Source of the DNA: Amphiscolops sp. MND2022
Taxonomy: Eukaryota
Direction: 5' to 3'
Assembly (NCBI GenBank): GCA_964187785.1
Contig: OZ076409.1
Span: 3,598,001 to 3,662,000, forward strand
DNA length: 64,000 bases
Shown here: positions 1,143 through 24,900 of the stretch, piece by piece
Position numbering within the stretch: position 1 is the first letter of the stretch
Layout: each line of letters opens with the position of its first letter
Program-made: the position numbers and the translations under genes
The notes under the pieces: model-generated
Databases searched by the model: none
Told to the model about the DNA's origin: nothing
What the model saw: only the letters and a program-made list of their open reading frames with translations

Positions 1143-2103
1143 CTAAAGTAACTGTGAAATTAGAGATTCGCAGTGTAATGCAGGTTCAATTGCAGTAACA
1201 TTATACAAATCCATCAGCACGGAACATCCAGAAAGGTAATCAAGAGCAGTGGGATTGGAAGATTGGTTTTGTAGTCTCATTGCTACTTGCCAATGTCTCT
1301 CAAATTGAGCGTGAACATTAGAGTTGAACATGTTCAGAAGAACTGGAACCGACAGCAACTGACAAAGCAGCAAAGAGACAGTTTCCATCGCCAGGTGCAA
1401 CTGAAGTGATAGGCAGCGAGCGACCTAAAAAGAAACCATGCAAAGGTTTGGTGTCACACAAATACCCACTGAAACTGACACCAAACCTAGAACACTTGCG
1501 TTGTACCTGTGAAGAAGTAGGAGGAGTGACCACATCGTTATGGGAAGAACAATAAAGACTAAATTGGCCACATCCATCATTCAGAACCTCGGTACTTGAA
1601 GTAATTGGTAACGGATCAGTAACAGCAGGGACATTGTTGATTGGATTTGGTTTATCCGAAGAATCAATGTCAAGAGGAACATTCAATGTACTCTGAGATG
1701 TTTCAACGGAAACCATTAAGTTTTGATGTGTAGGCAGAGAGCACAAACAATCGTTTCGAGGAGCAAACTTTCCACATCGGAGGCATCGGTTTTGAAGCTT
1801 CGGGCGTTTTTGCTTGCGGGGACCTGGATTGCTTTCTAGGCCACTTCTTAGTAACAAAATAATCACCATGTGCCTGGTGAATACTCTGATCTTCATGATG
1901 GATTCAGTAGTCATCATTTGAGATCTACTATGTTCGACTACATTCTGCCCGGCTTTTGATTGTTGTTCCACAAACATTATTGTAGTAATAAGTGAACTTC
2001 TTAGCTTCTGAATCTTTGAATTGCCTGGATCGAAACAAAACCATCCGATGATAAGAAAAGTAGGCTCCAAAACTTTATTACCAATCCCATTTTCTGAAAG
2101 CAT
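1143..2103 (-). pseudogene. Internally deleted RepHel paralogue (2A-like peptide, start of OTU, extreme C-terminal tail)
   Basis: ORF 1318-2103 has LLRSGLESNPGP and APGDGNCLFAAL. Overlapping frame 1143-1400 ends HAQFERHWQ...DYLSGCSVLMDLY...CESLISQLL, matching the RepHel C-terminus HAQFEADWQ...DYLSECHVLMDLY...CDSLISQL. Confidence 0.8.
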
Positions 2104-3009
2104 ACAACAGTTAAGACCATTGATAACGCGGTGACAAAACGTGACATAAAGAATGTTTCCACGGAATAATTACAACAACCATATTCTCCCCAAGGAACCT
2201 AACATCATGGGAAGATTCAGTACGTGGAGTGTCAAATATGAAACACATTCAATCAACAAAATGTTTATTGGAAGAAGTTTCTATCGTTTACAAATTATGG
2301 TTGACAAACAACCACAATTCAATCCTGCACAGTTATCCCAAAATAATTACCAAAAAACAATAATGGGGTAAGGTAGCAATTAGATATCAACATTGTTCTG
2401 CTGTCAGAAATCAGGTCAGCATTAGATAACATTGTACAAACCAATAATAGCACCATTGAAAGTAAAACTTCAACTTATAATTTGACAGTGAATTAAATTA
2501 GTGACTTTTTTAATCTATAACTGTTACAAACAGTCGTGAACAGTGTAAGTTCGTAAAAACGGTTGCAGAACAAACCTTAGGCAGGGTAGTTGAATATACT
2601 GAACATTAGTTCAGTGTAAAATTAATCAAAGAGCGGATAAAATATAATTCAAAAAACCATTTCTCATTATTCTGTAAGCCAATAACAAACTAAGTAGAGC
2701 TCTGAAATCCACTTTTGCTGTAGGAGTAGGTTAAATAATGAAAACACTATGGGGAAAATCAAAATTTTGAAGCAGGTTATGATTTCACAGCTAACTTGGT
2801 ATAGATGTAGAGGTAAATGGAAAATTAAAAAAAACACGTTACAAAAAAGTATTTAATCATGTGTTAATATGAAATTTTTGTAACAATTCCCATTTACGAC
2901 CATAGAAAGAATTGAAATGATATAAAGCGTTGTCTTTCTAAGATTAGCACTTTGTATAATGCGAATATCAATTATACGAGTGTTGAAATCGGAACTCAGT
3001 GAAAGGAAA

Positions 3010-3481
3010 GAAAATGAACGAGGATCAAAGAATCGACAAATTGAATGGTTGCCAATTTCATATGAAATGGGTATGTCATTCAACTGCAGAATATCACGGT
3101 AATAACGCGTTACAAAGGCTTCAGTGTTATGTCTGCCGTGTCCACCGAAACTTCGTGAAGAATGAGATTCAAATCAAACACTGAGTCGGCTCGCGGCAAA
3201 TAGAAGACTACTACCACGTTCAAGGATACTAACCGTCTCAATTCCTTTTCCAGCAGTGTCGGATGCAGAGGTGGCACTGACTTACTGGCGTGTTGAGAAA
3301 GGCTAATAGATATTACATCGTGCCATAGGATAAACCGTTCTGTTCGCCGAAATCTCCGTAGGACAACGTGAATCCCTGGCTCGGCTATGACACTGGATCC
3401 CTACATTTTGGAATTAGAATTTGAATGAAGCATTGCATGGTGCAAGCTTGAGGCACCTATCACAACAACAATAGGCAACAT
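3010..3481 (-). pseudogene. SGNH-like accessory gene copy with in-frame stops
   Basis: Manual translation from ATG 3481 gives MLPIVVVIGASSLHHAM...KM*GSSVIAEPG...FILWHDVISISLSQH...LNVVVVFYLPRADSVF, collinear with ORF 20417-21010. The 3' limit is approximate. Confidence 0.75.
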
Positions 3482-3744: not shown

Positions 3745-4272
3745 TGCGGGTGATTACGCAACAAAGCTCGTTCGTAGTGGACGAACGATACGGCAAAGTT
3801 TTTACACAAGATTATTCTTTCTCAGAGCATGTAGTGCAGCTAGGAAACCGGGTTGATGGACAACCACGACAAATAGGATTTGAGGAAGAATTCATTTCAG
3901 CGGGTTGACGAACAACCACAATGACATTAAAAGAAATCCAAAAGTTGTTTAACAAAGTTTTCTTTGGTTGCAGCTAGGAAGTTTATGCAAGTAATGACGA
4001 AACAAGGTCCGTTCGTAGTGGATGAACGATGCAGCATAAGTAGGAACAACAGATTATTCTTTGTCAGACCATGTAGTGCAGCTAGGAAACCGGGTTGGTG
4101 GACAACCACGGCAGAAAGGATGTGAGGAAGACGTCATATTCTGGGGTTGAGGAACAACCACAATGGCATATGTGACGCAATGTAAAATTCAATGTGTAGT
4201 AACTTGGTGTAAATAACGGTAGATATTTTGGATTGAAGTACAACCACGTCTAATGAGTTGACGAACAACTAC
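3745..4272. repeat. ~240-bp tandem duplication and hairpin-motif cluster just downstream of RepHel 1
   Basis: 3745-3925 resembles 3985-4165. Motifs start at 3850, 3902, 4092, 4144, 4230 and 4255. Confidence 0.8.
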
Positions 4273-4338: not shown

Positions 4339-7300
4339 TCAGAGCTGCGAAATTAAGGAGTCGCAGTTCAAACCTGCCTCCACTCCATTAACTTTATAAA
4401 GATCCATCAGAACATGACACTCGGAGAGATAGTCAACGGCAGAAACCACTGTTGATGTGAGATGTCGCGCTTGCATTGATCGTTGCCAGTCAGCTTCAAA
4501 CTGGGCGTGAGTCTTGAGTGATAAATCAGTGAACCCATAAACATAAGCAGCTAAAGCCCAGGGGCGTCTCTCAATTGGTCGAGTGAAGTGACCACCTGTG
4601 CCGGCGTTGTGTTGCGACAAACGTTTGCGCAGGTTCTTACAGGAGCCAATATAAAACAAATCGCGGTGGGGAACGCTGATAAGAAGATAACAGAAACCTA
4701 TGGAAGCTGTTGGGACATCGAAATGTTTCAGAGGGAAAGGATGGAATTGTTGGCATTTAGCAATACGGCCAGAACCATGTGAGTAAATGTCAAGGAGTGC
4801 TTCGATGTACCACAGGAGATGATTTTCTTTTTGGGAAAGTTCTTTTATTGCGTGTAAAGTTTCATTTCTATTGCCAACGAAAGTGACATTTGACAAGTCA
4901 GTAACTCGACTTAGAACTACATAAAGTTGTTCTTTAGCCCAAAGTGCAAATTTCTTACCACCGACAATTTGTGTGGCCAAAGAAGGAACTGTATCCCCCA
5001 TAATTTTGTGGACGGTAGAGGCAACGTACATTTTAACGGGTAACTGAATTCTGCGACAAACTAACCCACTGTTCACTCTGTGGACGACACCGACTTGTCT
5101 CCGAAGGACAACAGAACGCCAACGCTGTATGTCATGGTTTGTAAATGACAACGACCTGAAACCAACGGGTGCAATTCGGACAGTAATTGTCTGCGAGGAC
5201 TCGTCAAAAGCATCCACAACACAAAGCTGACCTTGGAATAGTTTAAAAGTAGGGAGATTACAAGTGAGTCGCAAAACACATGCCACATGAATAAATAACG
5301 AGCGCGGTTGCGGGCAGTTGTTGCTTAGAAACCGTGTCACAGCTTCATTTGCTCTCATCCAGTTCTGAGTACCGCTGTTTGACATTTCGTCGTAGCAATC
5401 AAAAACAGCACACTGAATAGTTGGGTCTCTTCGCACCAAATCAATTCTTTGCTCAATAGCTTCTTTCTCAGCAGTTCGAGTTGCGAAAACGCGAAGAACG
5501 TGCAGGGAAACGTCGGACCACTTGGGGAGGAAATTACAGTAAGTGTTAACAATTTGGACTATTTGGTTACATTTCTCAAGCGATATGGGATACTCAGACA
5601 AAAGATTCAGTAAAATTTTGCCGTACAAATTCTGCATTCGCACATATTCTTTCAAAAGATGAACTTCAAAAGTGGCCAGGACCGTGTTGCTCATGAGCAA
5701 AAGCATACCACCTGGTGGAGGTAATTGACGGAAGTCACCGGTGGAAATTACCAATTTGCCTCCGAATGGAATTGAAGACCCCGCAACTTGCTGCATGACG
5801 CAGTCCATTGCTGCCCAGATTTCAGCGGACACCATAGAAACTTCTTCTACAAATATGATGTCCAAACCTTTCAAAACGAAAAACTTAACTGGGTCTCTTG
5901 CCAAACGACTCAAAGCATGTGAAACCAAATGAGAAACAGAGGCATTATCGGATACTGGGAACGGGAATAAGGCATTTATATGCCGCCCACCTAAAATTGA
6001 AGACCGCTCTGCTGCCAAACTTGTTATTATGCAAGAAAACCCTTTTGTGATACCATAGACCACGCAATGAATCATGACATGACTTTTACCGGTACCAGGG
6101 GGTCCAAGTATAAATTGATGTTTTATGAAACATGTTGCAGATGTGCGATATAGCTCCATTGAGTTGCACAAAGTGTCCAATACGCTTTGTTGATGAACCA
6201 AAGAATCCAAATTTTGGTTTTGACCGGCGATTATTACAGGAACCCATGGAAAAGGCGTCTGGAGGGTGGCGTTAAGCAAATCCGAAGATGTTGGCAGTCC
6301 GTGGATACCTTGGTTTAGAACAGCTGTGACGATGCTTTTTTTCATTAACTGAAGTTCCTCGTCTACGTCTTTACATCGCTGGTCAACGACGCTCTCTTCG
6401 AGAACCCGGGGGACAGCGCACGTGTAGAACAACGAATTATGCTGAGTTGCTCCAGAAAGAGAACTGTGGGCAACACAAAGGAAACGATCCAACAATGACG
6501 ACGAACCGGGATAAAAAATTAGCTGTTCCAAAAGGAAACGACGTGTAATTTGCAAAACCTCCAAATTGTCACAACCGGATGTGCTTTGACACAAACCAGC
6601 AATGTGGAACGCGTTAATGATAGAGGAGTTACTGAATAAATCTAACTCTGTAGTGTAGGATCCCAACGTCAAAAGAATATGTATGACAAAGTTGGAGGAA
6701 TCTCGTGGAAGGACGTTGGAAAAAACTACTTGACGACAAGTAGCGAATTTTTTTGGAGAAATAAAGTTATTTCGATTTGGACTGCGCAAACATGCCAGAG
6801 CTTCCACACAGTTCAGAAGGAAGGAGTTGTCAGTGGAAGTGTAATTGTTGCAGAATGAAATGAATGAATCGAAGTAGAAAGAGTTCAAAACAACAATATA
6901 ACCAAGTCCGTCTATCCACAAAGAGTCGTCCGCTGCGGCCTTCAGACAGGTTTCCGTTGCCTGCTTTTCTGTCCGTTTGAAACGTAAAAACCATGTGAAA
7001 TATTGCTCAATATTTCTTACGAATCGTAATTCGGGGGGTCTAACACCAAAAATAGTAACTTTGTCAGGTGTGAGACAACTTTTTTGCGTGTCAATGATAA
7101 GAAACGTTTGGTTGTTGGTGAACTGCCGATGAGAAGGAAGAGACAAGTTGCGACGAATGGCGTTTTGTCTAGCATACAGAGGAGCTTGATTGTGGCGAGA
7201 TACCCGACGCTTCTCGAGAATGACACCAGAGCGTTTTTCTTTAGGAGCAGTGACTACGTGAACGAAGGAAATATTAGACACGACGTATGGGAAACGAAGA

Positions 7301-10300
7301 GACCACCACGCAGATTCTGTGAGGCTGATAACTCTGGCAGCGAAAGTGTTTCTTTTACGTTTGGGTGCGAACGCTGGACTACTCAATTGAACACCTGCTA
7401 TCTTTTGATTGGACATGGGGTCAATATCGAAGGTAAAATTATTTTGTTGACTTGTACTGCGAATGGAAACATGACTTCGTTCCTCTACTCCCGCAGCGTA
7501 TTTGGCAAGATACCGAGCACTCATATATGTATCACAAATTTGAAGATTTGTACTGGATTGCACTAAAGCAAAAATGCGGGCGTTGGTTGGAGAATAATGT
7601 GAGTTCCGATCCGTGGGATAATGATGCTTGCCACCACACAAGACAGGGTCCAAAACTGTTTTGCAACTATCGGGGTCAAAGTGAGCAAGTCCAAGTTTTT
7701 GAAGAAGTACCACAGTTTCTGGAGAAAGGTTCTTCTCAATTGGTTTGTAGGAGAAATCATTAGCCGGAGGGTACTTAGGAACTCTACAAACGGACTCTGA
7801 AAGCTTCGCAGTTTTTTTATGACAGCGGAATTTGGCTTTCTTACAACTGTGAGTTTGAAACTTGTGAAACAAATCGACCAAATGGTTGGTTTGTGTGGCA
7901 GACAGTTTATTGTTTCCAACAGATGCAATCAAAGATCCCAAAAAAGTTGATGGGGAACAACAAACACGAGAGCGGACATTGTTTGAGAAGACGTCTTCAC
8001 CTGTCCATATCAATGCATGAATATGTGGGAAAGCACTGGTCTGATCTTGGAACTCATATCGGAACCAGAGTTTTAAAACGTGACCGAGAGGTTTTTCGGG
8101 GGAAGTTTCGATGTACTTCATTACCAAGGCTGAGCTACGTTGCCAAGCTCGTAACATGGTTATCATTTCGGCCTGAATAGCAGACAACCTCGTTTCTTTT
8201 GACGAAGTAGCTGGAGGATATTTGGCATCAATAGCAGCGAAAATTTTACGTAAACCAGGATGAGTGGATTGACTGCATGTGTAGGTGAAAAAATATGTTG
8301 CGGGCTGTTCACGGAGAGCCGCACTCAACTCATTAACATGTTTTCGAGAGTCACTCTGATCGAAAGATATTGAACTGTCGCAAACTTTCTGAGACTGCTG
8401 ATAATCTTTGGCAGCTGCACCCCATCCTCTGTTCAAAATCACTCGGCTGTCGTGTTCTCTGAGTTGGAGGTTGAACAGGGTGTCGAATGCAAATTGAATG
8501 TAACGAGGATCGGAAGATGTTAAAAGCGAAGAATCCATCAAACGAGTTTTTAAATGATTTTCCAAAGTGGCGTATCCCATGTACTTGTTGCTTTGAGGGT
8601 TGTTAAATAGACTGGATGGTAAAGAGCCAGGATAACTTCCATCAGCGTTCTGTTTCCAAAAAATTGATGGAAACATCATTGCCTCAGGTTGGTATAATGG
8701 AACTGACATCGGGGATGATGTAGCGGTAACGTTTTCTAACATTCGCTTAAATCTGGCCGCCACATACAAAGGTGATCCGTGGCTGCGTTTCAAAAGGCCA
8801 CATTGACCATTTAACAAAACATGGAGCGGAAGTTTGAAGTGAACGTCCATGTGAACATGTTCAGAAGCTACATTGGGGGAGACGCCAATGCGGGTATGAG
8901 TAGGGATTGAGATAGAAGAAGCAGCTGATGATTCAACAGTGAACATAGCATTGGTAACAAGATTAGTGGAACTTGAGGTGGATGGAGCGTCATCGAAAGA
9001 TGATGAAAATTGAGAATCAGGGAGACAGCAAGAAGTGGAGTTGTTAGAAGCGTTATGAACAACGGAAGCATTGTCCTTTGCCTCCTGGGCACTGTCCTTT
9101 ACGGTACTGTGTGTAGGCTGCACAATGTTAACCTCAAGAGACTGGGATGTGTGTTGTTTGCATACAGACGCAGAGCATGTAGCGACAGGACAGCGAATGA
9201 AAGACGCTCGACCACAGCGACACCTGAAACCACTCTTCTGAAAGTCACGAGTTAAAGGAATGTGATGAACTTCACACAAAAATCGACCTTGACCGGCCAT
9301 GGACATCATGAAGTCTTTTTTCAAGTCTGTTGCGGAAACTTCACATATTCGGTAATAAACAGCCATTCGCCAATAACCGTTAGTCAAGTGGTCAACTGCT
9401 ATATCCGGAGACATAGTAACACGTTTCGGACAACCGGAAGTTTGATCGTAAAGCCAAAATTTGTCAAACGGCTCTCCATGTCGAACGAGTGCTCTATTGT
9501 TTTGACCAGGGGAACCAGAGAAAACGTTTCGCAGCTCGAAACGACTGTTATCAGCGACAACAGAAAGGGGCAAAGAATGTTTACTACGTAAGGAATTACT
9601 ACCATTGTAAGAAAAAATTACAATGTCGATGCCTGCAAGTGACCGTTTGAACCGAGAAGCAACATCAGGACGGTTAGTGACAACAGAAAATTCAATATGT
9701 GGAGAACAATCGGAGACGTAAAGACCGACATCGTTGTGAATTGAATCGGACAAATCATGCAAATGCTGTGGAAGATGAAACTGTGGATATGGACAATTTC
9801 TTAATTTCGGGAAAATTAAAGTATCAAGCATCCCCAAAATATGTAGAAGGGTTTCATCCGGCTTATCCACTGACGAAATAAGAGCACACAAATGCGGAGA
9901 AATCACAAAGAGCGATTGAATTAAAAACAATTTTAAATTTTTGAAAGACACTAATCTCGGAGGATTTGCTCCATGGTGGTTTGCAGGATGCGCAAAAGTA
10001 ATGTTTTTGAATTTCTCCAGAAATGCATCTTTTTTCAAAGTGGAAAAAATGCTCAACGTTTTCCTTGTATCCAATAATGAGACACATGTAGAAGATTCTA
10101 GCGAATTTTCTGTTTCTACGACGTCGCAACCTGGTTTCGCCAATATGGCTTCAGCAATTGATTGTTGTAACTCACCGGAGTCGACCAATTGGTGCAATAA
10201 ATACCGAATATCTTGTCGATGATACGCACATTGCGCTTCAGACTGCACTAACAAATCGGAAGTTATGTCCCATTTCCTTTTCGACGTCAATTGAATACTA

Positions 10301-12774
10301 CTGATACCAGAATAATTGCCTTGGGCTTTCATTAGCTGAAAGGTGTGACTAGAGTAATTGGCCTTCACATTTTGCAGCAAATTCAGGTTAGGCACTGCAA
10401 GGGCTAAACGATCAGGATGCGGGACACTTAGCCGATGCAATATGGGATGGCGTGGCGGATGTACGAATTGTAATGGTGACCCATTGTGATGATCACGGCA
10501 CGTACCAACAACTAATCCTCTCGTAGGATGTAAAAACACGAACCCTGAAACGATGAAAGCATCTAAAATTAGAAAAGGCTCTACCCAATCTTTGCGTCTA
10601 CCACGAAAATAGCGTAGGTGATCTGCTTTGAAAGAAACGAATTGCGGCAACACTTCATTCAGGAGATGTTGAAACGATATATGTCCTGTTTGTTCAACAA
10701 ATGTGAAACAACCAAATGGACAACGACAATTTGGATAGGGCTCGTTATCAAGCGCTTTTTCCAAGTCATCAGCGAGTCCAGATGACGTGTGTGATGAGAA
10801 TAAATGCTTTCTGTAAGTAATATCTGACAGTACTGGTTTAACAGATGAGAAACTTACAGCAGAGTGGAAAACAGAAACAGCGGACCAACTGTATCTAACC
10901 TCAGCAGGAATGTACGACAAAATAACTTTCACATCGTTCCCATCCAACGACTTGTTAGTGAGAATTGTTAACAAAACACAAGGCCAAGCGACACTCCATG
11001 TTGAACTCTTGGTTAAATATTCGTAGCAACATTGACACACGAAAGCATCCTCGCGCAATCGACTTCCAAACTTACGCCTGATTATATCTCCCACTTTAAC
11101 AAAATGCCATGTCAAGGGATAGAAGACTGTGGAAACACGAAAACATTTGCCGCAGGACCTCTGTGAAGAATCGTGTTGTTCCTTCCGAGAAGAAATATCT
11201 TCGTGAGCTGGCAAAGGATGTGGTGCAGGTGTTTTATGAGTTGGAACACAATGATCTCCGTTCATTCTATCATTGTGTGCTTCAGAATGTGGAACCGGCG
11301 TAACTTTAATTGTATGTTTCGCAGAACCAGATGAGAACATGTTGACATTACTGATGGTCTTGTTTTTGGTTATTCTTGAATCGACATCATTGGTTAAAAA
11401 TTGAAATGCTGATTGAGGAAAAGTTGTACAGCCATCCAAAACTGAAGACTTTGACCTTGGTTTCAAAATATTGGAATAAGTGGATGCAAGTTCGTTCGAC
11501 TTCGATGTTGTTGAATAATCGGAGTTAGTGCAGACATTGTTATGCCGATTTGAGTTAGGGGTGACAGATGTTGTTGAGTTAGCACAGAAACCTGCCACAG
11601 TTTCGAAATGATTCAAACTGGGTGTGAGGTACAAAAATATAGGCAACACAGCATGGTCATCACGGTCTCCATCGCAAGAATAACAAAGCCAAACTCGTGT
11701 TACAGAATGAAATACATACACATCGACGTGGAAAAGTTGTGCAAAACTGTATATCTCAACGCAGGTTCCATAAGTACCATCAGTATGCATTCTAGATATC
11801 CGCAGGTACTCAGAAGTCGTCGAACAATTACGGGTGACCACCCGGTCACCTTCGGCGATCCAAACATCCAAAAACTGGGAATTGATGTTCATTGTAGAAA
11901 TGAAGCCACAAAGCATGGTACGGAGATGATGATGCTGAGAAGGATTTGCGCCAATGGCAAGTAACAAAGCAGAAAATAAACAGTTGCCGTCACCGGGAAC
12001 AATGTGTGTAGTTGGCACAAACTGTCCGATGGGTGAACTACAGACAGGACTCGTGTCACATGGAGTACGTATAAACTGGAATCCGAACTGAAAACATCTT
12101 TGACGCAATTGTTGCACTGTAAACTGCTGAACTGTAATATGTTGACACGGCCGATAAAGAGCGGGAACATCGACAGTGGAATTGACAGAAGGAGCATGAG
12201 AAATGTAAGTTTCCGAAACAGCGACATCTGTTTGCAGCGAAACACTATCAACGGTATTGAACTGATCATTAGAACACGTTAATTCCGTTCCGAAATTATA
12301 ATTTTGGTTCTTGGGTAATGGTTCCTTGTCGGCTAGACGGTTATTCGTTGTCAAATAAGCGGTCGCAGAAGAAGATTGAATTAAATCACAGGTGTCTAGA
12401 AAGAAATCCGTATGGGAATTGTCGTCATCAGATAGTTTTACTTTTTTGGCTTCAGCGCATGTTGAAGCTTGACATTGACACACAACCGAGCCAGAGAATT
12501 TTCCGCAAGAACACCGTTCAATCCAGCGCCGTTTTTTAGGTGGACCTGGGTTACTCTCAATGCCACTTCTGAGAAGAAAGATAACAATTGTCTTTCTTGT
12601 TTGACAGTTGCTCTTGAAATATTCAACTCGGTTAGATGGTTGGCAAGTTGTAAGAAAATGGTTCTTCGATGAACCTTCCATCAAAGTGAAACGAGACCAC
12701 GTGTCTTTTTGCTGAAAGCATAATTCACATGACGCTAAGGTTGAGGAAGAACAGCAATGAAATAATGAAAGCAT
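4339..12774 (-). CDS. Helitron-like RepHel protein, 2811 aa: 2A-like, OTU, Cys-rich region, HUH Rep, PIF1-family helicase, GIY-YIG
   Basis: 2A-like LLRSGIESNPGP. OTU PGDGNCLFSAL...YGTCVEI...NHF. Rep FFTYTC, YEFQ..FPHIHALIW, YLAKY. Helicase GPPGTGKS, EEVSMV, GDFRQLPP, STVHKIMG, QLYVVLSRV. GIY-YIG FCYLL..FYIGSCKNLRKRLSQHN. Confidence 0.93.
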   Translation of the reverse strand: MLSLFHCCSSSTLASCELCFQQKDTWSRFTLMEGSSKNHFLTTCQPSNRVEYFKSNCQTRKTIVIFLLRSGIESNPGPPKKRRWIERCSCGKFSGSVVCQCQASTCAEAKKVKLSDDDNSHTDFFLDTCDLIQSSSATAYLTTNNRLADKEPLPKNQNYNFGTELTCSNDQFNTVDSVSLQTDVAVSETYISHAPSVNSTVDVPALYRPCQHITVQQFTVQQLRQRCFQFGFQFIRTPCDTSPVCSSPIGQFVPTTHIVPGDGNCLFSALLLAIGANPSQHHHLRTMLCGFISTMNINSQFLDVWIAEGDRVVTRNCSTTSEYLRISRMHTDGTYGTCVEIYSFAQLFHVDVYVFHSVTRVWLCYSCDGDRDDHAVLPIFLYLTPSLNHFETVAGFCANSTTSVTPNSNRHNNVCTNSDYSTTSKSNELASTYSNILKPRSKSSVLDGCTTFPQSAFQFLTNDVDSRITKNKTISNVNMFSSGSAKHTIKVTPVPHSEAHNDRMNGDHCVPTHKTPAPHPLPAHEDISSRKEQHDSSQRSCGKCFRVSTVFYPLTWHFVKVGDIIRRKFGSRLREDAFVCQCCYEYLTKSSTWSVAWPCVLLTILTNKSLDGNDVKVILSYIPAEVRYSWSAVSVFHSAVSFSSVKPVLSDITYRKHLFSSHTSSGLADDLEKALDNEPYPNCRCPFGCFTFVEQTGHISFQHLLNEVLPQFVSFKADHLRYFRGRRKDWVEPFLILDAFIVSGFVFLHPTRGLVVGTCRDHHNGSPLQFVHPPRHPILHRLSVPHPDRLALAVPNLNLLQNVKANYSSHTFQLMKAQGNYSGISSIQLTSKRKWDITSDLLVQSEAQCAYHRQDIRYLLHQLVDSGELQQSIAEAILAKPGCDVVETENSLESSTCVSLLDTRKTLSIFSTLKKDAFLEKFKNITFAHPANHHGANPPRLVSFKNLKLFLIQSLFVISPHLCALISSVDKPDETLLHILGMLDTLIFPKLRNCPYPQFHLPQHLHDLSDSIHNDVGLYVSDCSPHIEFSVVTNRPDVASRFKRSLAGIDIVIFSYNGSNSLRSKHSLPLSVVADNSRFELRNVFSGSPGQNNRALVRHGEPFDKFWLYDQTSGCPKRVTMSPDIAVDHLTNGYWRMAVYYRICEVSATDLKKDFMMSMAGQGRFLCEVHHIPLTRDFQKSGFRCRCGRASFIRCPVATCSASVCKQHTSQSLEVNIVQPTHSTVKDSAQEAKDNASVVHNASNNSTSCCLPDSQFSSSFDDAPSTSSSTNLVTNAMFTVESSAASSISIPTHTRIGVSPNVASEHVHMDVHFKLPLHVLLNGQCGLLKRSHGSPLYVAARFKRMLENVTATSSPMSVPLYQPEAMMFPSIFWKQNADGSYPGSLPSSLFNNPQSNKYMGYATLENHLKTRLMDSSLLTSSDPRYIQFAFDTLFNLQLREHDSRVILNRGWGAAAKDYQQSQKVCDSSISFDQSDSRKHVNELSAALREQPATYFFTYTCSQSTHPGLRKIFAAIDAKYPPATSSKETRLSAIQAEMITMLRAWQRSSALVMKYIETSPEKPLGHVLKLWFRYEFQDQTSAFPHIHALIWTGEDVFSNNVRSRVCCSPSTFLGSLIASVGNNKLSATQTNHLVDLFHKFQTHSCKKAKFRCHKKTAKLSESVCRVPKYPPANDFSYKPIEKNLSPETVVLLQKLGLAHFDPDSCKTVLDPVLCGGKHHYPTDRNSHYSPTNARIFALVQSSTNLQICDTYMSARYLAKYAAGVEERSHVSIRSTSQQNNFTFDIDPMSNQKIAGVQLSSPAFAPKRKRNTFAARVISLTESAWWSLRFPYVVSNISFVHVVTAPKEKRSGVILEKRRVSRHNQAPLYARQNAIRRNLSLPSHRQFTNNQTFLIIDTQKSCLTPDKVTIFGVRPPELRFVRNIEQYFTWFLRFKRTEKQATETCLKAAADDSLWIDGLGYIVVLNSFYFDSFISFCNNYTSTDNSFLLNCVEALACLRSPNRNNFISPKKFATCRQVVFSNVLPRDSSNFVIHILLTLGSYTTELDLFSNSSIINAFHIAGLCQSTSGCDNLEVLQITRRFLLEQLIFYPGSSSLLDRFLCVAHSSLSGATQHNSLFYTCAVPRVLEESVVDQRCKDVDEELQLMKKSIVTAVLNQGIHGLPTSSDLLNATLQTPFPWVPVIIAGQNQNLDSLVHQQSVLDTLCNSMELYRTSATCFIKHQFILGPPGTGKSHVMIHCVVYGITKGFSCIITSLAAERSSILGGRHINALFPFPVSDNASVSHLVSHALSRLARDPVKFFVLKGLDIIFVEEVSMVSAEIWAAMDCVMQQVAGSSIPFGGKLVISTGDFRQLPPPGGMLLLMSNTVLATFEVHLLKEYVRMQNLYGKILLNLLSEYPISLEKCNQIVQIVNTYCNFLPKWSDVSLHVLRVFATRTAEKEAIEQRIDLVRRDPTIQCAVFDCYDEMSNSGTQNWMRANEAVTRFLSNNCPQPRSLFIHVACVLRLTCNLPTFKLFQGQLCVVDAFDESSQTITVRIAPVGFRSLSFTNHDIQRWRSVVLRRQVGVVHRVNSGLVCRRIQLPVKMYVASTVHKIMGDTVPSLATQIVGGKKFALWAKEQLYVVLSRVTDLSNVTFVGNRNETLHAIKELSQKENHLLWYIEALLDIYSHGSGRIAKCQQFHPFPLKHFDVPTASIGFCYLLISVPHRDLFYIGSCKNLRKRLSQHNAGTGGHFTRPIERRPWALAAYVYGFTDLSLKTHAQFEADWQRSMQARHLTSTVVSAVDYLSECHVLMDLYKVNGVEAGLNCDSLISQL

Positions 12775-13963
12775 CTGTGAAAAATAACGTCATTATCTGA
12801 AAAAAAACGAACTTGTAATAACATAAGAGCACAGTAAAGAACAGCGAACCATAGTCGTAAGGTAAATTAAAATAACAACAAGGTGTTAATGGAAACATTT
12901 GTACGAGTGGATGTAAAAATTGTTTTAAACGGAGTGAAAGGAAAACACGTATTGCTTGATGCATGACTAATAAAAGTTTAAAAACCCATAGTTAATGTCA
13001 TGAACACGGAAAAACTTAAAACAAGGGTCATTGAAAGGGTTGATGAACAACCACTGCAAATGAGACAACGGTGTAGCATAACGTAAATCAAATCGAAGGC
13101 ACTGAACGTACGCGTTAGATGAAAATGAACATTACAGTCAAACACCTCCCTCGAAGCACTGGTTCCTATCGAAGTAGAAAATTGAAATTGTCTTACGTAA
13201 GTATTTGTTTCAACACATAAAACTTGTGAAATAGTTACAAAACAGGGTATAATAAACAAATGGTGGCGGTCTATATCGAACATTACCACATTTTGACACC
13301 GGTGAAACCCCAAATAACGTAATTTTTCATTTCCTGATATAGAAATATTTCAATGTAGCTGAAAAACAGATTTGGGAAAAATTCGCAATTTTTAGAATTT
13401 TGGTAGAACTTTTGTAGAACTTTTTATTTTTTATTTTTTATCCTGAACACGCGATGTTGAAAACACATCGACTGTACTGCTACCGCTCAAGTAAACATCA
13501 TCTCATCCAAAGATCGGAAGTTATGACGCGATGACCGGAGAATTCACATTTTTCCACTGATTAATCTACTTCTATCTCTCAGCCTAGTATTACCAGCCTA
13601 ATGATTTTTGGCATGCGAACAACTGACATCATTTATGCCTCGCATACAAAGTATCAGCCAATTGTATCCACATGCTGCAGATTTCGCAGCGAAAAAGTAC
13701 CGAAACAGGGTGAAAAAACCGATCATTTGCTCATAACTTCCCGCCAAGTAATAGGATCGTGTTTGGTCAGCAGAACATCAGTCATACATCGGCAAGATAA
13801 GTGCACATGCAAAGTTTCATCAAAATCCTACGGTTCAATTCGAAAATCGCTGTTTTTTACCGACTGACCGAGAGGTATATAGTTCGACATGCGAAAGTTG
13901 AGCTCGGCATCGGGACCCTCCCCGGCCTCGCACTAAATAATGTGGGGAGGTTCCCCTGACCAC

Positions 13964-14998
13964 CCAGTGGAGGCAAAGGTACAATCACGAGAAAGGCCGT
14001 AATGACATTCTAGAGGTAAGCAATGAGGCAAAAGTCACAGGATAACAACCATCAATTGTTTGCTTTGTACAAAAGTTGCTCAAAAGTGTTCTTTCATCAG
14101 CAATAATTCATCCTATACCGCACGCACGAACCACCACAGGTGATGTTCAGGCCATGGTTGTTTGTTATCACCGTTCTTCCTCCGAACTGCTTCGCGGTCC
14201 TCCGGAGAACGGTGATGTTGTTATTTACAAGGCAACAAAAATATACTGACAAATTCAGTTCCTACAAGTGAAAGAACAGTTCAGTTATGTCTGATTTACT
14301 TTTTCTGACCTCTGAAACCTCTTTAATTGTCACCCTAAGCGCAGAGTCACTTCTTTTTTGCGTTCAAAATGTGAAAAAGCATCGAAAAATGAGAAAATCT
14401 TTTTTTTTTGAAAAATTCGCATTTTTTAGAATTTTGGTAGAACTTTTGTAGAACTTTTATATTTTTTATTTTTTATCCTGGCCAGGTGATGTTGAAAACA
14501 CATCGACTGCACTGCTACCGCTCAAGTAAACACCATCTCATCCAAAGATCGGAAGTTATGACGCGATGACCGGAAAATTCACATTTTTCCGCTTCTTTTT
14601 CCACTCTTATCTCTCAGCCTAGTATCACCAGCCTAATCATTTTTGGCATGCAAACACCTAACATCATTTATGCCTCGCATGCAAAGTATCAACCAATTGT
14701 ATCCACATGCTGCAGATATCGCAGCGAAAAAATACCGAAAATGGGTGAAAAACCCGATCATTTGCTCATAACTTCCCGCCAAGTAATAGGATCATGTTTG
14801 ACCAGCAGAACATCAGTCATACATCGGCAAAATATTAACACATGCAAAGTTTCATGAAGTTCTAACGGTTCAATTCCGAAATCGCCGTTTTTTGACAGGT
14901 GATCTAGTGGTATATAGTTTGACACGCAATACTTGAGCTCGGCGACGGGACCCTCCCCGGCCTCGCACTAAAATATGTGGGGAAATACCCCTGACCAC
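13964..14998 (-). mobile_element. Non-autonomous unit A (1035 bp, type 1)
   Basis: Bounded by GACCAC|CCAG junctions; carries the shared conserved block; stem-loop at 14167-14216. Confidence 0.85.
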
Positions 14999-16045
14999 CC
15001 AGTGGAGGCAAAGCTACCAATTACCAGGGGGCCGAACGGTACTGCCTGTTCTCAATTCATGTATAACTTGTTCCACTTTGGGGTCACTGATGTGAATTTT
15101 TGCCGATGCACATCGCAACGACGTACATAATCATGTCGAACAAAACTAAACAGTGACTGCCTTCGGTCGTAACAAGTATCTACAGCCTTTCTTCCGGGTC
15201 ACCGTTGTTCCTGCGTGCTGCTGTGCATCCCTCGGAACACCGGTGACAAATAAAATTACGTTTTAAAATCGTGCTACTTATGCATTTGCCTCAACCCTGA
15301 GTATTTTTCAAATACTTACTGAAACTGGTATATCAAGCTGGTGAAAGCGGTCAATATTAAAAATAAACCCATTTTGGCGCCGTTGACACGATAAATAATG
15401 TGATTTTTGAATTCCTGGTATAAAAATACAATGGAATCCGAAAAAATTTTTTTTTTGAAAAAATTCGCAATTTTTAGAATTTTTGTAGAACTTTTGTAGA
15501 ACTTTTTTATTTTTTATTTTTTATCCTGACCACGCGATGTTGAAAACACATCGACTGTACTGCTACCGCTAAAGAAAACATCATCTGTATAAAAGTTCGG
15601 AAGTTATGACGCGATGACCGGAGAATTCACAATTTTCCACTACTTTTTCTACTTCTATCTCCCAGCCTAGTGTCACCAGCCTAATGATTTTTGGCATGCA
15701 AACACCTGACAACATTTATGCCTCGCATGCAAAGTATCAGCCAATTGTATCCACATGCTGCAGATATCGCAGCGAAAAAGTACCGAAACAGGGTGAAAAA
15801 ACCGATCATTTGCTCATAACTTCCCGCCAAGTAATAGGGTCATGTTTGACCAGCAGAACATCATTTGTACATCGGCAAGATAAGTACACATGCAAAGTTT
15901 AAAGAAGTTTTATCGGTTCAATTCGAAAATCGCCGTTTTTTGACTGGTGTGCTAGATGATATAGTTCGACACGCGAAAATTAAGCTCGGCATCGGGACCC
16001 TCCCCGGCCTCGCCCTAAATAATGTGGGGAACTACCCCGGACCAC
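14999..16045 (-). mobile_element. Non-autonomous unit B (1047 bp, type 2)
   Basis: Same junctions. First 29 bp (ccagtggaggcaaagctaccaattaccag) are identical to those of element 2. Stem-loop at 15198-15247. Confidence 0.85.
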
Positions 16046-17215
16046 CCAGTGGAGGCAAAGCTACCAATTACCAGTGAGGCGTGAGAAGTTTCATTGTTAC
16101 GTCGTTGTTTTTCTTATGCGAAAGTGAAAACATAACGTATTAGACAATCAGGACTTTGTATGTCGTTATTATGAACATGGTTACAATTTTGAGGAAAAGC
16201 AGGTGTCACCCGTAACAATTCAATTCATTATAGGAAGCTTCAAAACTGAACAATTCAAGGTATTTGAATTTCATTCGTAAATGTTAAAACGTTTAGGGTT
16301 ACAACTAATGCAGTACGGAAAAGAGTTATGAGATCATTGATACAAAACAACGGAATAGTCAGCAAAGGACAAAACAACTGCGACATGTATAAAATGTAGA
16401 CCTCTCGAAATTCGGAGGTAAACTTTAGGTTGATATGACTGCTATATGTAATGCTATACACAGAGATCAGAAGAGTAAAAAGAGTGTACATTTTGTTAAC
16501 AGTTGTCGTTATTGGTGGTGGCCAGAAAAGGCCACGGGGATTACAGTTTCTAAACCAAATTGGTATAACAACACTACGCATAACACCAAATTTGAAATGA
16601 GCTGAACGAAAGTATCATGATTAAAACAATGTATAGGGATTATGAAGAGAACATGCTAAGTAAGTAATTGACTCATTATTGGGTAGGGTAAGTTGTAAAA
16701 TAATGTTAAAATTGAAACAGGTGTGAATAGTGGTAACTATGAAGAGTTTCTCATCGAATTGAACTTGTAGACACGTTAAAAAAGTCTATACACATAAACA
16801 AATAAAGCAAAACTGTTATTTCTAGATATTGCCAAAAGACATCGACGTGAATAACCTATGTCAAAATTTGCCGAATTGTATACCCGTATGTGTTTAAATA
16901 TGTAAAAATTAGGTAAAAAACATCTGTATTTAAAACAACGACCTGGGTTGACGAACAACCACAAGGTGGATGATGAAAATACCAAAATGTGTGAATTTTA
17001 AAACAACGACCTGGGTTGATGAACAACCACAAGTTGGATGTTGAAAATACCGAAATGTGTGAAAATAGAAAGCAAGGATTGGCGATGAACCGCATCATTG
17101 ACAGGCAATGTGGTACAAGGACAAGGGCAACAAACAGTGACTGTTGATTTATAGAAGGCAAAACATCAACAGTTCGGGAAAAGCGTTGATGTTAAACTTT
17201 GGGATCATTTGGGGA

Positions 17216-18229
17216 TCAATCGTGACCAGCTGGTCGGAGAGGAGGCGGAGGATTGTCATCGTGATTAATTTGGCCAACATCGTACTTCCGGTCGTCAGGA
17301 ATCATTACGGTTGCCCTAATTCTGCATATTTGGACACGACTAATAGTTTGAGCAATGTTTTCTTCAGATAGTCCGCTTTTATAGTAACCGGTCACAAGCC
17401 AACCACCATTGTCGTTGACATACTGCTGAATGTTACGTACACATTGCCTCAAACGATGAACAACGATATCTGTAGCCGGAAGAGCCAGTGTTCCAGTGGT
17501 ACAAAAGATTTTGTTTAACTGCAAACTCTGAAGGACTTCTCCAGATAGAGGATCTTCTTCCACATTGTCAATAGCTGTGGAAAAAATTCGGCAACTTATG
17601 GCCCAAGCGGATACAGCACTCTTTTGAATGCATGCGCAATTGCTACTTTTCACAATTCGTCTATCGCAGAAGACGCCACTGCAAGTAGGAGAAGCGATAT
17701 TTGTTTGAATGAATGACAATTGAGTGTTGTTCAGCTGGAACTTCGTGAGCGCAGTTGTTAACGGGTTTATAACAATAGGAGACGGACGAAGGTTGATACC
17801 ATTGTGGGCAGCAAGCTCTAAAGGTCTTCTAACCTCGAAAATTGGGTTACTGCGGTCGTTTCCTAGGCACAACCCACTGAAAATGGGCTCGTGTACATGC
17901 ACTAGAGCACCTACAGTCAAAAGAGGGTGTCTGAATATACTTGATGATTCTTGGGCGGTAGTAGTTATTACAGCAAAACATGCTGCCGATTGAAGTTCCC
18001 CAATTATAACCAATCTATCGTAGGACGAATCCATAGAAGTTTTTTTAACTCTCCCTACATTAGGACGAAAGGTCTGCAATGGCCTATCGTGACGCTTTGC
18101 AGTTAGAATTATACCCGACACATATGTGTCTTCACTTTCCCGGAGGAAGTTAGGATGGATGACATCAGTAACATTAACTTCGCGCAAGTTTGCCATGAAT
18201 CCTGAAATGAACGTAAACATCAACCACAA
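17216..18229 (-). CDS. Accessory protein of unknown function, possibly OB-fold ssDNA-binding with a Cys cluster (probable ATG at 18196)
   Basis: Uninterrupted 337-codon ORF inside the element. Beta-strand-like pattern (VSGIIL, RLVIIGE, LTVGALVHVHEP) and C-x4-C-x9-CxC. The OB-fold call is inference only. Confidence 0.65.
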   Translation of the reverse strand: MWLMFTFISGFMANLREVNVTDVIHPNFLRESEDTYVSGIILTAKRHDRPLQTFRPNVGRVKKTSMDSSYDRLVIIGELQSAACFAVITTTAQESSSIFRHPLLTVGALVHVHEPIFSGLCLGNDRSNPIFEVRRPLELAAHNGINLRPSPIVINPLTTALTKFQLNNTQLSFIQTNIASPTCSGVFCDRRIVKSSNCACIQKSAVSAWAISCRIFSTAIDNVEEDPLSGEVLQSLQLNKIFCTTGTLALPATDIVVHRLRQCVRNIQQYVNDNGGWLVTGYYKSGLSEENIAQTISRVQICRIRATVMIPDDRKYDVGQINHDDNPPPPLRPAGHD

Positions 18230-20416: not shown

Positions 20417-21010
20417 CTAACGACCTTGATTACGACGTCGCTGCGCAGAGCGGTTCCTGTTAATTCTTTTGTACAGCATCAATTGATGCAAGTTATTTGC
20501 ACCAAACACACGTTGAATGAAATGATGTTCGACTTCAAGATTGACATGAAAATAGTTCATTGCTAGCAAATCACGATAGTGTCTTGACAGTAATGTTCGT
20601 AATTTGATAAAGACGATATTTTCATTGAAGGGCTCCAAATGATCGTCCATATTGAACACCGCATCAGGCCTTGGAATGTAGCAAAAGGCAACAACATTCA
20701 ATCTTCCCAGCTGCTCTAGTTCAGCCCGAAACTGCACTGGGCTTAGGGGCTGCGTTGATTGTGTCGGATGATGCGAAATACTGTTGGATATAACATCGTG
20801 CCACAGTATATACTGTTCTGTTCTCCAATTTCTTTTCCTAATTACTTCATGCACATTTTTCAGACAATTCGAATTGACAAGGGACATTCCTGGTTCTGTG
20901 ACAATCTGATTTTCGAAAGGCCACAATTGGAAAGCGGGGTTATTGATGGCGTGGTGCAAACTGGAGGCCCCAATTACAGTTACTTGCATCTTCGATCTGT
21001 AAATGAGCAA
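20417..21010 (-). CDS. SGNH/GDSL hydrolase-like accessory protein (probable ATG at 20989)
   Basis: VTVIGASS resembles block I GDS, EPG block II, WHDVISNS block III, NYFH block V DxxH. Basic C-terminal tail. Homologous copies at 1-57, 3010-3481 and 21156-21326. Confidence 0.65.
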   Translation of the reverse strand: MLIYRSKMQVTVIGASSLHHAINNPAFQLWPFENQIVTEPGMSLVNSNCLKNVHEVIRKRNWRTEQYILWHDVISNSISHHPTQSTQPLSPVQFRAELEQLGRLNVVAFCYIPRPDAVFNMDDHLEPFNENIVFIKLRTLLSRHYRDLLAMNYFHVNLEVEHHFIQRVFGANNLHQLMLYKRINRNRSAQRRRNQGR

Positions 21011-21155
21011 TGATGATTATGGTGAATTTTGTGAAAGGGAAAACTAAACTTATCAATTGCCGACAAAGCACACTTGAAAAATTTGTCAAAACTGTAAATA
21101 ATAACCCCAATTTTAAAATTACTTTGAAAACGATATAACGAACTAAAGGGGAAGG

Positions 21156-21326
21156 TTAGTTTAACTTTTTCCGAACAACATGGTACACATTTTTGTATGA
21201 ATGTAAATTGTTTTGGGAGATCCCTGGCTCCGGTATGACACTGGTTCCATACAAAGTGCAATTAGAATTTGAACGTAGCATCGCATAGTGCAAGCTTGAT
21301 GCACCGATCACCACCACAGGCAACAT
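21156..21326 (-). pseudogene. Truncated second SGNH-like copy (56 aa)
   Basis: MLPVVVIGASSLHYAMLRSNSNCTLYGTSVIPEPGISQNNLHSYKNVYHVVRKKLN*, homologous to the N-terminus of 20417-21010. Confidence 0.7.
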
Positions 21327-21930: not shown

Positions 21931-24900
21931 TCACAGCTGCGGAATTAAAGAGTCACAGTTGAGACCTGACTCCACTCCATTAATTTTGTATAAATCCATT
22001 AAAACGTGACACTCAGAAAGGTAGTCAACGGCAGAAACTTCTGTTGATGCCAAATGACGCGCTTCCATTGACCGTTGCCAGTCAGCTTCAAACTGGGCGT
22101 GAGTCCGCCTAGATACATCAGAAAAGCCGTGAACAAAGGCAGCCAAAGCCCATGGGCGTCTCTCAATTGGTCGTGTAAAATGACTACCCGTCCCGGCGTT
22201 GTGTTGCGACAAACGTTTGCGGAGATTCATACAAGAGCCAATATAAAACAAGTTGCGGTGAGGAACGCTAACCAAAAGATAACAGAAACCAATGGAAGCA
22301 GATGGAACATCAAAATGTTTCAGGGGGAAGGGATGGAATTGTTGGCACTGGGCGATGCGACCAGAACCATGTGAGTACATCTGCAGGAGGGATTCGATGT
22401 ACCACAGAAGATGATTTTCTTTCCGGCAGAGCTCTTTTATTGCATTCAAAGTTTCGGTTCTGTTTCCAACGAAAGTGATGTGTGATAAATCAGTAACTCG
22501 ACTTACAACAACATAAAGTTGTTCTTTGGCCCACAGTAAAAATTTCTTTGCACCGACAATTTGCGTTGCCAAAGACGGAACAGTATCGCCCATTATTTTA
22601 TGATAGGTGGAAGCAACGTACATTTTAACAGGTAACTGAATTCTGCGACAAACCATTCCGCTGTTCAGTCTGTGGATGACACCAACTTGTTTCCTAAGGA
22701 GTACAGAACGCCAACGTTGTATGTTCATGTTTGAAAAGGATAACGACCTAACACCAACGGGTGCTATTCTGACAGTAATTGTGTGCGAGGACTCGTCGAA
22801 AGCCTGAACAACACAAAGCTGGCCTTGAAAGAGTTTCAAACTAGGAAGGTTACAAGTGAGTCGCAAAACACAAGACACATGAAGAAACAAAGATCGCGGT
22901 TCTGGGCAGTTGTGGTTTAGAAACCGTGCTACAGTTTCAGTAGCTTTCATCCAGTTCTGGGAACCACTGTTCGACATTTCGTCGTGACATTCAAAAACAG
23001 CAAACTGAATACTTGGGTCTCGTCGAACAAACTCTATCCGTTGCTCAATAGCTTCTTTCTCAGCGCTTCGAGTTGCAAACACGCGAAGGTCGTGCAAAGA
23101 AACGTCGGACCATTTAGGGACGAAATTACAGTAAGTGTTTACAATTTGAACGACTTGATCACATTTCTCGGGCGATATGGGATACTCCGATAAAAGATTC
23201 AATAAAAGTTTACCGTACAAATTCTGCATACGAACATACTCTTTTAAAAGATAAATTTCAAAAGTGGCCAGTACTGTGTTGCTCATGAGCAATAGCATAC
23301 CGCAGGGTGGAGGTAACTGACGGAAGTCCCCAGTGGATATAACCAATTTACCTCCGAATGGAACAGATGTGTCAGAAACTTGCTGCATGACGCAGTCCAT
23401 AGCAGACCAAAGTTCGGCAGAGACCATAGACACTTCTTCTACGAAAATAATGTCCAAAGCCTTCAAAACGAAAAACTTAACTGGGTCTCTCGCCAATCGA
23501 TTCAATGCATGTGACACCAAATGAGAAACACTGTTGATATCAGAAACAGGGAATGGAAATAGGGCGTTTATATGCCGTCCACCTAAAATGGCAGAACGCT
23601 CAGCTGCCAAACTGGTTATAATGCAAGAAAACCCTTTTGTCATAGCAGACACCACGCAATGAATCATGACATGACTTTTACCTGTTCCAGGTGGACCAAG
23701 TATAACCTGATGTTTTATGAAAGAAGTTGTAGAATTTCGGTATTGCTCCATTGAATCGCATATGGCGTCCAGAATGCTTTGTTGATGAACCAAAGACTCC
23801 GAATTTTGGTTTTGACCCGGGATTATTACAGGAGGCCATGAAAAGGGCGATTGCAAGGTGGCATTGAGTAAATCGGATGCTGAAGGAAGTCCGTGGATAC
23901 CTTGATTTACAACAGCTGTAACAATCCTTTCTTTAATTGAACGAAGCTCCTCGACCACGTCTTCGGATCGCTGTTCCACGACGCTCTCTTCGAGAACCCG
24001 GGGGACAGCACAGGTATACTGCAACAAATTATGCTGAGTGGCCCCAGAAAGATAATTGTGGGCAACACAAAGAAAACGATCCAACAATGACGACGAACCA
24101 GGATAAAAAATTAGCTGTTCCAAAAGAAAGCGACGTGTGATTTGCGAAACCTCTGAATTGTCACAACCTGATCTGCTTTGACACAGACCAGCAGTGTGGA
24201 ACGCTTGAATAATGGAGCTGTTAGCGAACAAATCTAACTCGGTGGTGTAAGATCCCAATGTCAGAAGAATATGGATGATAAAATTGGAGGAATCTCGTGG
24301 CAGGACGTTAGAAAAGACTACTTGACGACAAGTAGCGAACTTGTTTTCACAGAGAAAGTTATTTTGATGTTGACTTCGCAAGCAGGCTAAAGCTTCTAAA
24401 CAGTTGAGATTGAAGGAATTGTCCTTGGTGATGTAATTGGTGCAAAATGAGACAAAGGAATCGACGTAGTATGAATTTAGAAGAACAATGTAACCAAGAC
24501 CGTCTGTCCACAAAGATTCTTCCACTGTTGCCTTGATACAGGATTCAGGTGCCTGCTGTTTTTTTGGTTTGAAACGTAAAAACCACGTGAAGTATTGCTC
24601 AACAGATCTGACAAAACGTAATTCCGGGGGTCTAACACCAAAAATTGTCACTTTGTCAGGTGTCAAAGTGCTTTTTTGCGTGTCAATAATGAGAAATATT
24701 TGGTTGTTGGTAAATTGCCGATGAGAAGGAAGAGACAAATTGCGACGAATAGCGTTTTGTCTAGCATACAACCCAGCTTGGTTGTGGCGGGATAACCTAC
24801 GCTTCTCGAGAATGACACCGGAACGTTTCTCTTTAGGTGCAGTGACCACGTGCACAAAGGATATATTGGAAACGACGTAAGGGAAGCGGAGAGACCACCA

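Follow-up and report, generated by a model that had tools for sequence, protein, structure and literature searches.

Helitron-like elements (HLEs) are usually split into two groups, HLE1, which includes Helraiser (PDB 7lcc), and HLE2, which includes the Helentrons, and a third clade outside both, 'HLE Paramecium', has just been described (excerpts of PMC13085455, 2026). Helentrons carry a second nuclease after the helicase, and in the excerpts available of PMC8788227 and PMC6431247, the AP endonuclease APE is the sole extra nuclease described. How rolling-circle transposons finish integration, and what role the extra Helentron nuclease plays, are open questions. The only report we found of a GIY-YIG domain within a Helitron-like element is a single capture in one HLE2 family of Sphagnum magellanicum, HelenSM92 (excerpts of PMC11417382). 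Here, we describe two intact transposase genes in which a GIY-YIG nuclease of the SLX1 type is fused to the end of a Rep-helicase protein. They lie in a 64,000-nucleotide window of Amphiscolops sp. MND2022 (assembly GCA_964187785.1, contig OZ076409.1, positions 3,598,001 to 3,662,000).

Two transposases that end in a GIY-YIG nuclease

The window contained two intact transposase copies and one deleted relative, and all genes in positions 1-31000 were on the minus strand (Table 1). Copy 1 is one open frame (4339-12789, 2816 aa; first ATG at 12774) with the domain order 2A-like motif, OTU, Zn-rich region, pseudo-USP, Rep, PIF1 helicase and GIY-YIG, and copy 2 is a second open frame (21931-30492, 2853 aa) with 79.4% amino acid identity to the first. 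Synonymous divergence (dS) between the copies was about 0.5 but only 0.13 over aa 1321-1484 of copy 1 (about 8340-8830), which suggests that they recently underwent gene conversion or recombined. The ratio of nonsynonymous to synonymous divergence (dN/dS) showed purifying selection, with values of 0.128 for GIY-YIG, 0.128 for Rep and 0.127 for the helicase at dS of 0.5-0.6, and 0.19 for OTU. The GIY-YIG domain is maintained by selection.

Both copies run in frame past helicase motif VI into FCYLL-x8-(F)YIG...RLSQHN...FT...RPW...FEADW, which an initial annotation, made without database searches, had read as an SLX1/UPF0213-like GIY-YIG pattern. This reading was borne out by the Pfam search that the annotation had proposed: PF01541 matched aa 2698-2773 of copy 1 (E 1.8e-9, 38.2 bits) and the tail of copy 2 (38.4 bits), both above the cut-off of 22.6. 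When the last 153 aa were compared with the PDB, SLX1 structures were on top (4xlg, E 1.4e-11; 7cq2, 9e-9; 7wme, 3.5e-8), and the other GIY-YIG types were far behind (UPF0213, 3e-4; UvrC, 0.92). A profile of the clade to which the copies belong also placed SLX1 first (E 2e-13 to 8e-10) and UPF0213 at 0.0025. The catalytic set of copy 1 is complete (Y2701, Y2713, G2715, R2723, H2727 and E2765), and both copies keep all six residues. R2723 and E2765 align with R36 and E79 of Cg-Slx1, which are active-site residues (excerpts of PMC4407285), and neighboring Q residues align too. On these residues, the nuclease of copy 1 is predicted with good confidence to be active.

The Rep domain has two His and two Tyr residues and stands upstream of a motif-intact PIF1 helicase in one open reading frame (ORF), which is the arrangement general to Helitron-like elements. 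Pfam Helitron_like_N matched aa 1464-1594 of copy 1 with 29.3 bits (cut-off 28.9), and PIF1 matched aa 2223-2358 with 40.8 bits (cut-off 25.9); in profile comparison, Rep matched HLE2 with a probability of 98.9 and HLE1 with 97.7. The initial annotation had singled out EE at Walker B and HKIMG at motif V as departures from PIF1. Both are present, but EE is not peculiar, since 156 relatives split into 82 with D and 74 with E as the first Walker B residue, and loss of the motif V Q is typical of the clade (M in 104 and Q in 14 of the same relatives). Walker B of Paramecium Hel01, inspected by eye in the excerpts, is also EE.

The 940 aa that precede Rep did not significantly match the N-termini of HLE1 or HLE2 proteins in profile comparison. 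The 2A-like motif fits the core (D/G/C/N)(V/I)ExNPGP and resembles the LLLLSG-like upstream class in excerpts of PMC12846837; NPG-type motifs were seen in 6 of 189 clade proteins, all close to copy 1. The OTU domain noted in the initial annotation has the GDGNC...NHF pattern, but its Pfam score on aa 265-362 (E 0.008, 17.1 bits) is below the cut-off of 23.3. Our own OTU profile found the domain in 19 of the 189 proteins, placing it in part of the clade only, and it is probably active in copy 1.

An AlphaFold (AF2) model of aa 540-1220, made from 31 sequences, had a pLDDT of 85.5. Its residues 394-610 (aa about 933-1149) matched USP12 with Z 13.2 and a root-mean-square deviation of 3.4 over 192 residues, and ranks 1-36 of the fold search were all USP-type; Foldseek agreement was weak, and Pfam missed the fold. 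Because no catalytic Cys or His of USP was conserved among 43 members aligned and inspected by eye, we consider this domain a pseudo-protease. No family was assigned to the preceding region (aa 543-930), which the fold search barely tested. Ubiquitin-type proteases also occur elsewhere in these proteins: clade relatives carry OTU (P0023) or Ulp1 (P0152) after GIY-YIG, and the HLE2-like protein P0359 has a C-terminal Josephin domain.

Extent and placement of the clade

Searching with the helicase-nuclease part returned 25 proteins of 100% to 24% identity, 18 of them with a precomputed GIY-YIG domain, and canonical Helitrons were matched only at E 3e-9 or worse. A Rep-helicase query without the nuclease yielded, at E<1e-30, 328 clusters defined at the 50% identity level, and tail statistics cover the best 150 of these 328. 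Helicase motif VI was reached in 118, of which 108 had a tail of at least 110 aa and 10 ended within 89 aa, the latter probably cut short. The GIY profile, built from clade members, matched 106 of the 108 long tails, which argues that the fusion is clade-wide rather than a one-off gene capture. Pfam GIY-YIG was also detected in all ten relatives chosen across the clade, above cut-off in nine. All six catalytic residues (Y, Y, G, R, H and E) were kept in 106 of 146 tails from proteins only about 30% identical, and the flanking N, P and W were conserved as strongly.

Clade proteins are about 2300-2900 aa long. The only named hosts were those of four Styela clava proteins, the remainder coming from ENA, JGI and Logan assemblies. 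One clade member (L045:1-2512, 53% identity), the only match in a prokaryote genome, was on a 2.5-kb contig in a Candidatus Poribacteria metagenome-assembled genome. A bacterial origin was rejected, since that genome had no PF05970 match, and the contig is probably eukaryotic host DNA in the bin. Searches of viral, phage and plasmid sequences matched only stand-alone PIF1-like helicases (22-35% identity, with one short segment at 50%) and no Rep-helicase fusion in the matched segments; HLE1 references sought in viral contigs gave none.

The position of the clade was evaluated in a Rep+helicase tree of 36 rows and 618 columns. References were three HLE1 and 9-19 HLE2-type proteins (9-11 in the careful trees), whose labels were assigned from the Helraiser score, from Pfam markers or from position in a tree. 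The HLE1 references were P0030 and P0363 (1093 and 676 bits against Helraiser) and P0028, which groups with both. Of two proteins first labelled HLE1, P0361 was assigned to HLE2 after grouping with HLE2-like rows, and P0362 was dropped. No full Rep could be extracted from four dinoflagellate-type HLE2 rows or from P0366, P0367 and P0371, and the tree was built without them; P0367, initially taken for a cellular protein, was treated as HLE2 in a tree with viral and plasmid PIF1 helicases.

In the Rep+helicase tree, support was 100/99 for the GIY-YIG clade, 96/90 for HLE2 and 100/100 for HLE1, and clade proteins were nested neither in HLE1 (three references) nor in the sampled HLE2. Mean identity of the clade to HLE1 and HLE2 was 17-18% in Rep and 20% in the helicase, compared with 21% and 25.5% between HLE1 and HLE2. 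In a helicase tree to which viral and plasmid PIF1 helicases were added, the clade held (100/99) and joined HLE1 with modest support (91/88), with HLE2 at 92/94; HLE2 was split in a quick tree of Rep alone. These trees, one of the checks suggested in the initial annotation, uphold its claim of a distinct Helitron-like lineage, and the nuclease is C-terminal in more than 100 divergent proteins. That the GIY-YIG proteins form a clade of their own is highly likely, and this clade is apparently a large, old and unnamed Helitron-like branch. Judged by sequence, the element is Helitron-like and a member of neither sampled HLE1 nor sampled HLE2.

Compared with Helentrons and other HLE2, the element has a homologous HUH Rep, a PIF1 helicase, a second nuclease after the helicase and OTU upstream, but differs in having GIY-YIG instead of APE, no DUF6570, 18-20% core identity and a separate branch. 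Motif II lacks RGS, motif V lacks Q, and the terminal inverted repeats (TIRs) and T|T termini of HLE2 were not found here. Some HLE2 carry a USP/UCH domain (P0264, P0310; excerpts of PMC11417382), whereas the USP fold here is dead and mid-protein. PF03372 was absent from both copies at E<=1 and from 10 relatives at E<=0.05, and DUF6570, the HLE2 marker upstream of Rep, was found in none of 12 clade proteins scanned and in none of the precomputed domain lists; profile comparison, which leaves room for deep hidden homology, gave it a probability of 0.5 or less. The statement that GIY-YIG stands instead of APE could be taken to mean a Helentron in which one nuclease was swapped for the other, but a position outside the sampled Helentrons and the lack of DUF6570 indicate otherwise.

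With HLE1, the element shares an HUH-Y2 Rep with a TxTC motif I and a YxxKY motif III, as well as the PIF1 helicase, and among PDB entries the clade profile matched Helraiser best, by a small margin (E 9e-26). HLE1 proteins are shorter (about 1500 aa), have 17-20% identity to the clade, and lack the extra nuclease, pseudo-USP and Zn-rich region. The Paramecium elements, in the excerpts of PMC13085455, are similar in their very long ORFs (9-10 kb), purifying selection (dN/dS 0.15) and satellites beside the ORF. They differ in that five ORF ends, inspected by eye, run on for only about 80-90 codons past motif VI and lack a GIY-YIG; Q is retained in motif V, and RGS in motif II of the single copy read. 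The term 'GIY' was absent from the text and from the supplements searched, and the Paramecium clade is provisionally set apart here by these ORF ends. SLX1 itself shares the nuclease domain only, which is here fused to a helicase.

We found no description of this GIY-YIG clade among the top matches in open-access papers and on bioRxiv. The initial annotation called such a nuclease atypical but allowed for prior reports, and HelenSM92 is one GIY-YIG mention in print. Beyond the two usual groups of Helitron-like elements and the recent third one from Paramecium, an additional branch comprising hundreds of divergent members would alter the classification. Helitron_like_N scores at or below the cut-off in the clade suggest that such elements have been missed in annotation.

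A proposed role for the nuclease

Related families form clusters of 58 and 165 members (of each, 40 were read and 15 listed, many partial), in which full-length copies are 98.8-99.7% identical; three of these copies lie on contigs of equal length. Because of these multi-member clusters, the near-identical full-length copies, and the two intact and one deleted copy in the window, the element is very likely mobile. We interpret it as an autonomous rolling-circle DNA transposon from a deep Helitron-like branch that is apparently without a name, with a fused SLX1-type GIY-YIG as its hallmark and a tail nuclease that processes branched DNA, an interpretation that we hold somewhat above an even chance as a whole. 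By homology with Helraiser (excerpts of PMC4778049), Rep would nick one end and stay linked to the strand through tyrosine, the helicase would strip the strand 5' to 3', and a second nick would free a circle, which Rep would join to the target. The tail nuclease, by analogy with SLX1, may then cut branched DNA, removing flaps or resolving junctions at the target joint or the donor fork, so that the element would bring its own resolvase. Slx1 cuts Holliday junctions, flaps and splayed arms, and leaves plain or nicked duplex uncut (excerpts of PMC4407285). Branch or flap processing during integration seems to us about evenly balanced, or slightly favored, as the job of the nuclease. The OTU and the dead USP fold would be accessory ubiquitin-related parts, and the 2A-like motif may release a short leader.

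Several observations weigh against this interpretation. Neither a RING domain nor an SLX4 partner was observed here, HLE1 transposes without a GIY-YIG domain, and likeness to SLX1 does not determine the substrate. At least one of the six catalytic residues is missing from 40 of the 146 tails (some possibly misaligned), which would make cutting dispensable in some lineages, and the profile that recognized nearly all long tails was the clade's own. Reference sampling was thin and skewed to arthropod HLE2, and neither a sister relation of the clade with HLE2 (approximately unbiased test, p-AU 0.10) nor one of HLE1 with HLE2 (0.13) was rejected. Within the window, we found no element termini, target site or empty site, and no terminal inverted repeat of at least 13 nt common to both copies.

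Other roles for the domain can be set against branch processing. Penelope elements use their own GIY-YIG as a target-site nickase, and the domain might similarly give a 3'-OH at a preferred sequence or structure, such as the 1040-bp repeat beside the ORFs. The junction of each intact copy with the repeat array falls at the same phase, within a hairpin conserved by the repeat units, and the block 16081-30745 sits within a repeat unit, replacing about 190 bp. However, duplication may have copied a single old junction, the hairpin arms next to the elements have decayed, and the nearest structures are those of structure-specific SLX1 proteins, leaving a nickase an unlikely though credible alternative. 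A domain captured long ago mainly for DNA binding or structure, with cutting optional, would account for the tails without a full active site, most of which still match the profile, and for the conservation of the flanking N, P and W at the level of the catalytic residues. We regard it as improbable, given that all six residues persist in 106 of 146 tails across such divergent proteins and that both copies in the window keep them at a dN/dS of 0.13.

The remaining alternatives concern the element itself. It could be the HLE2 type already printed as HelenSM92, a Rep-helicase element with a captured, possibly fused GIY-YIG that is classed as HLE2, has short TIRs and TT insertion, and is possibly of similar overall size. 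The somewhat better profile match of Rep to HLE2 than to HLE1, and a union of the clade with HLE2 that was not rejected, fit this identity. It is doubtful in view of the absence of DUF6570 and TIRs and a clade not nested in the sampled HLE2; no moss-named protein was among the matches, most of which are nameless, and even if HelenSM92 belongs to the clade, no clade is described there. Finally, the two ORFs could be domesticated, immobile host genes in a segmental duplication, as their intactness at dS of about 0.5, flanks common over about 11 kb and lack of detected termini might indicate. We think this very improbable, because deleted and broken derivatives adjoin the intact copies, a full-length relative 91% identical to copy 2 is on another contig, and related families have dozens of copies.

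Two unrelated nucleases, APE and GIY-YIG, fused at one and the same position would suggest that the elements have a need in common. An intact element whose SLX1-type nuclease is small and separable also offers a way of testing how integration is finished.

Surroundings of the two copies

Table 1. Coordinates of features in the window (position 1 is its first nucleotide).
Feature	Position	Strand	Remarks
Copy 1 transposase ORF	4339..12774	-	intact, single frame, 2811 aa from ATG
2A/StopGo-like motif LLRSGIESNPGP	12541..12576	-	aa 72-83; putative
OTU-like cysteine protease	11605..12015	-	aa 259-395, D/C...H pattern
Cys/His-rich folded region, clade-specific	10000..11163	-	aa 543-930; invariant Cys/His; confident AF2 model
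USP-family deubiquitinase fold, pseudo-protease	9343..9993	-	aa about 933-1149; AF2 model and fold search
HUH-Y2 Rep domain	7480..8337	-	motif I TYFFTYTC, H1589/H1591, Y1760/Y1764
PIF1-family SF1B helicase	4855..6141	-	Walker A GPPGTGKS, Walker B EE, motif V THxxMG, motif VI SR
SLX1-type GIY-YIG nuclease	4471..4698	-	aa 2698-2773 of copy 1; Pfam and PDB profile matches
Copy 2, paralogous ORF	21931..30393	-	intact; GIY-YIG at 22069-22290
Internally deleted, more distant transposase relative	1149..2169	-	N-terminus to OTU start (30% identity), then last 58 codons (53%) in another frame
Five 18-bp palindrome copies	3850..4272	-	downstream of copy 1
Further palindrome clusters	615-985, 16945-17030, 21695-21865		
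Single palindrome copies upstream of ORFs	13037, 19439, 30634		variant near 2300-2315
Small SGNH/GDSL-hydrolase-like neighbor gene	20417..20989	-	intact; family label is a lead only
Broken SGNH-like copies	3027-3469, 21165-21323		another copy starts at position 36
326-aa Cys-containing ORF	17216..18196	-	flanked by 18-bp palindromes
About 1040-bp tandem repeat array	13147..16080	.	abuts 5' side of copy 1
Longer 1040-bp repeat array	about 30740-38885		abuts copy 2 at same phase

An 18-bp quasi-palindrome with the core GGTTG-N5-CAACC, a pattern chosen after inspection of the sequence, was present in 20 copies in positions 1-31000 and in none in 31001-64000 (simulated mean 0.04). Each large ORF has one copy upstream, further copies are clustered downstream, and the relative L039 has two copies at the equivalent place. 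An acceptor-like ...CAG stands before three of the four copies that lie upstream of genes. A stretch of ~500 bp common to 2300-2820 and 19420-19965 ends at the palindrome; beyond it the blocks differ, with the 326-aa ORF in one and the internally deleted transposase relative in the other, as if gene cassettes were exchanged at the palindrome. We rate as an even question the broadest proposal that these data allow: a major unnamed group of eukaryotic rolling-circle elements, as old as the HLE1/HLE2 split, apart from the Paramecium clade, widespread and missed by Helitron models, which would have had an SLX1-type resolvase since its origin and require it for integration, with genes in cassettes bounded and swapped at the 18-bp palindrome.

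An SGNH-like gene follows each transposase, intact after copy 2 and broken after copy 1, and L039 has a homolog downstream of its transposase (34% identity, E 1e-22). The label is based on rank 9 in the ESM Atlas (score 0.90, PF00657 on 41% of members), and the gene had no Pfam match; SGNH genes were linked earlier to fish Helitrons (excerpts of PMC4021074). The 326-aa ORF, which had no match in Pfam, NCBIfam, PHROGs or the Atlas and gave no usable model, is probable cargo.

At least five diverged types of unit make up the 1040-bp repeat, and they share a ~600-bp conserved part. Units contain a ~48-nt hairpin (e.g., 14168-14218 and 34935-34985) with changes on both arms and DNA fold z of -1.8 to -7.2 in five units, and the repeat might represent either a structured element or a transposon of the non-autonomous kind. 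Read on the opposite strand, the units terminate in CCAG/CTAG, a feature only possibly tied to the element; no ends of the HLE1 type (5' TC, 3' hairpin-CTRR, A|T insertion) were recognized close to the two ORFs. Scanning the window for Rfam families and tRNAs gave no matches, and hammerhead cores in the arrays were rejected, as there were two loose pattern matches in one repeat type only.

Elsewhere in the window, about nine tandem 575-bp units with 98-99% identity (49442-54609) represent a young satellite or an assembly expansion. A reverse transcriptase remnant (RVT_1; 47037-48185, plus strand) is broken by a stop, and a short-chain dehydrogenase ORF or exon (61522-62250, minus strand) is probably a host gene.

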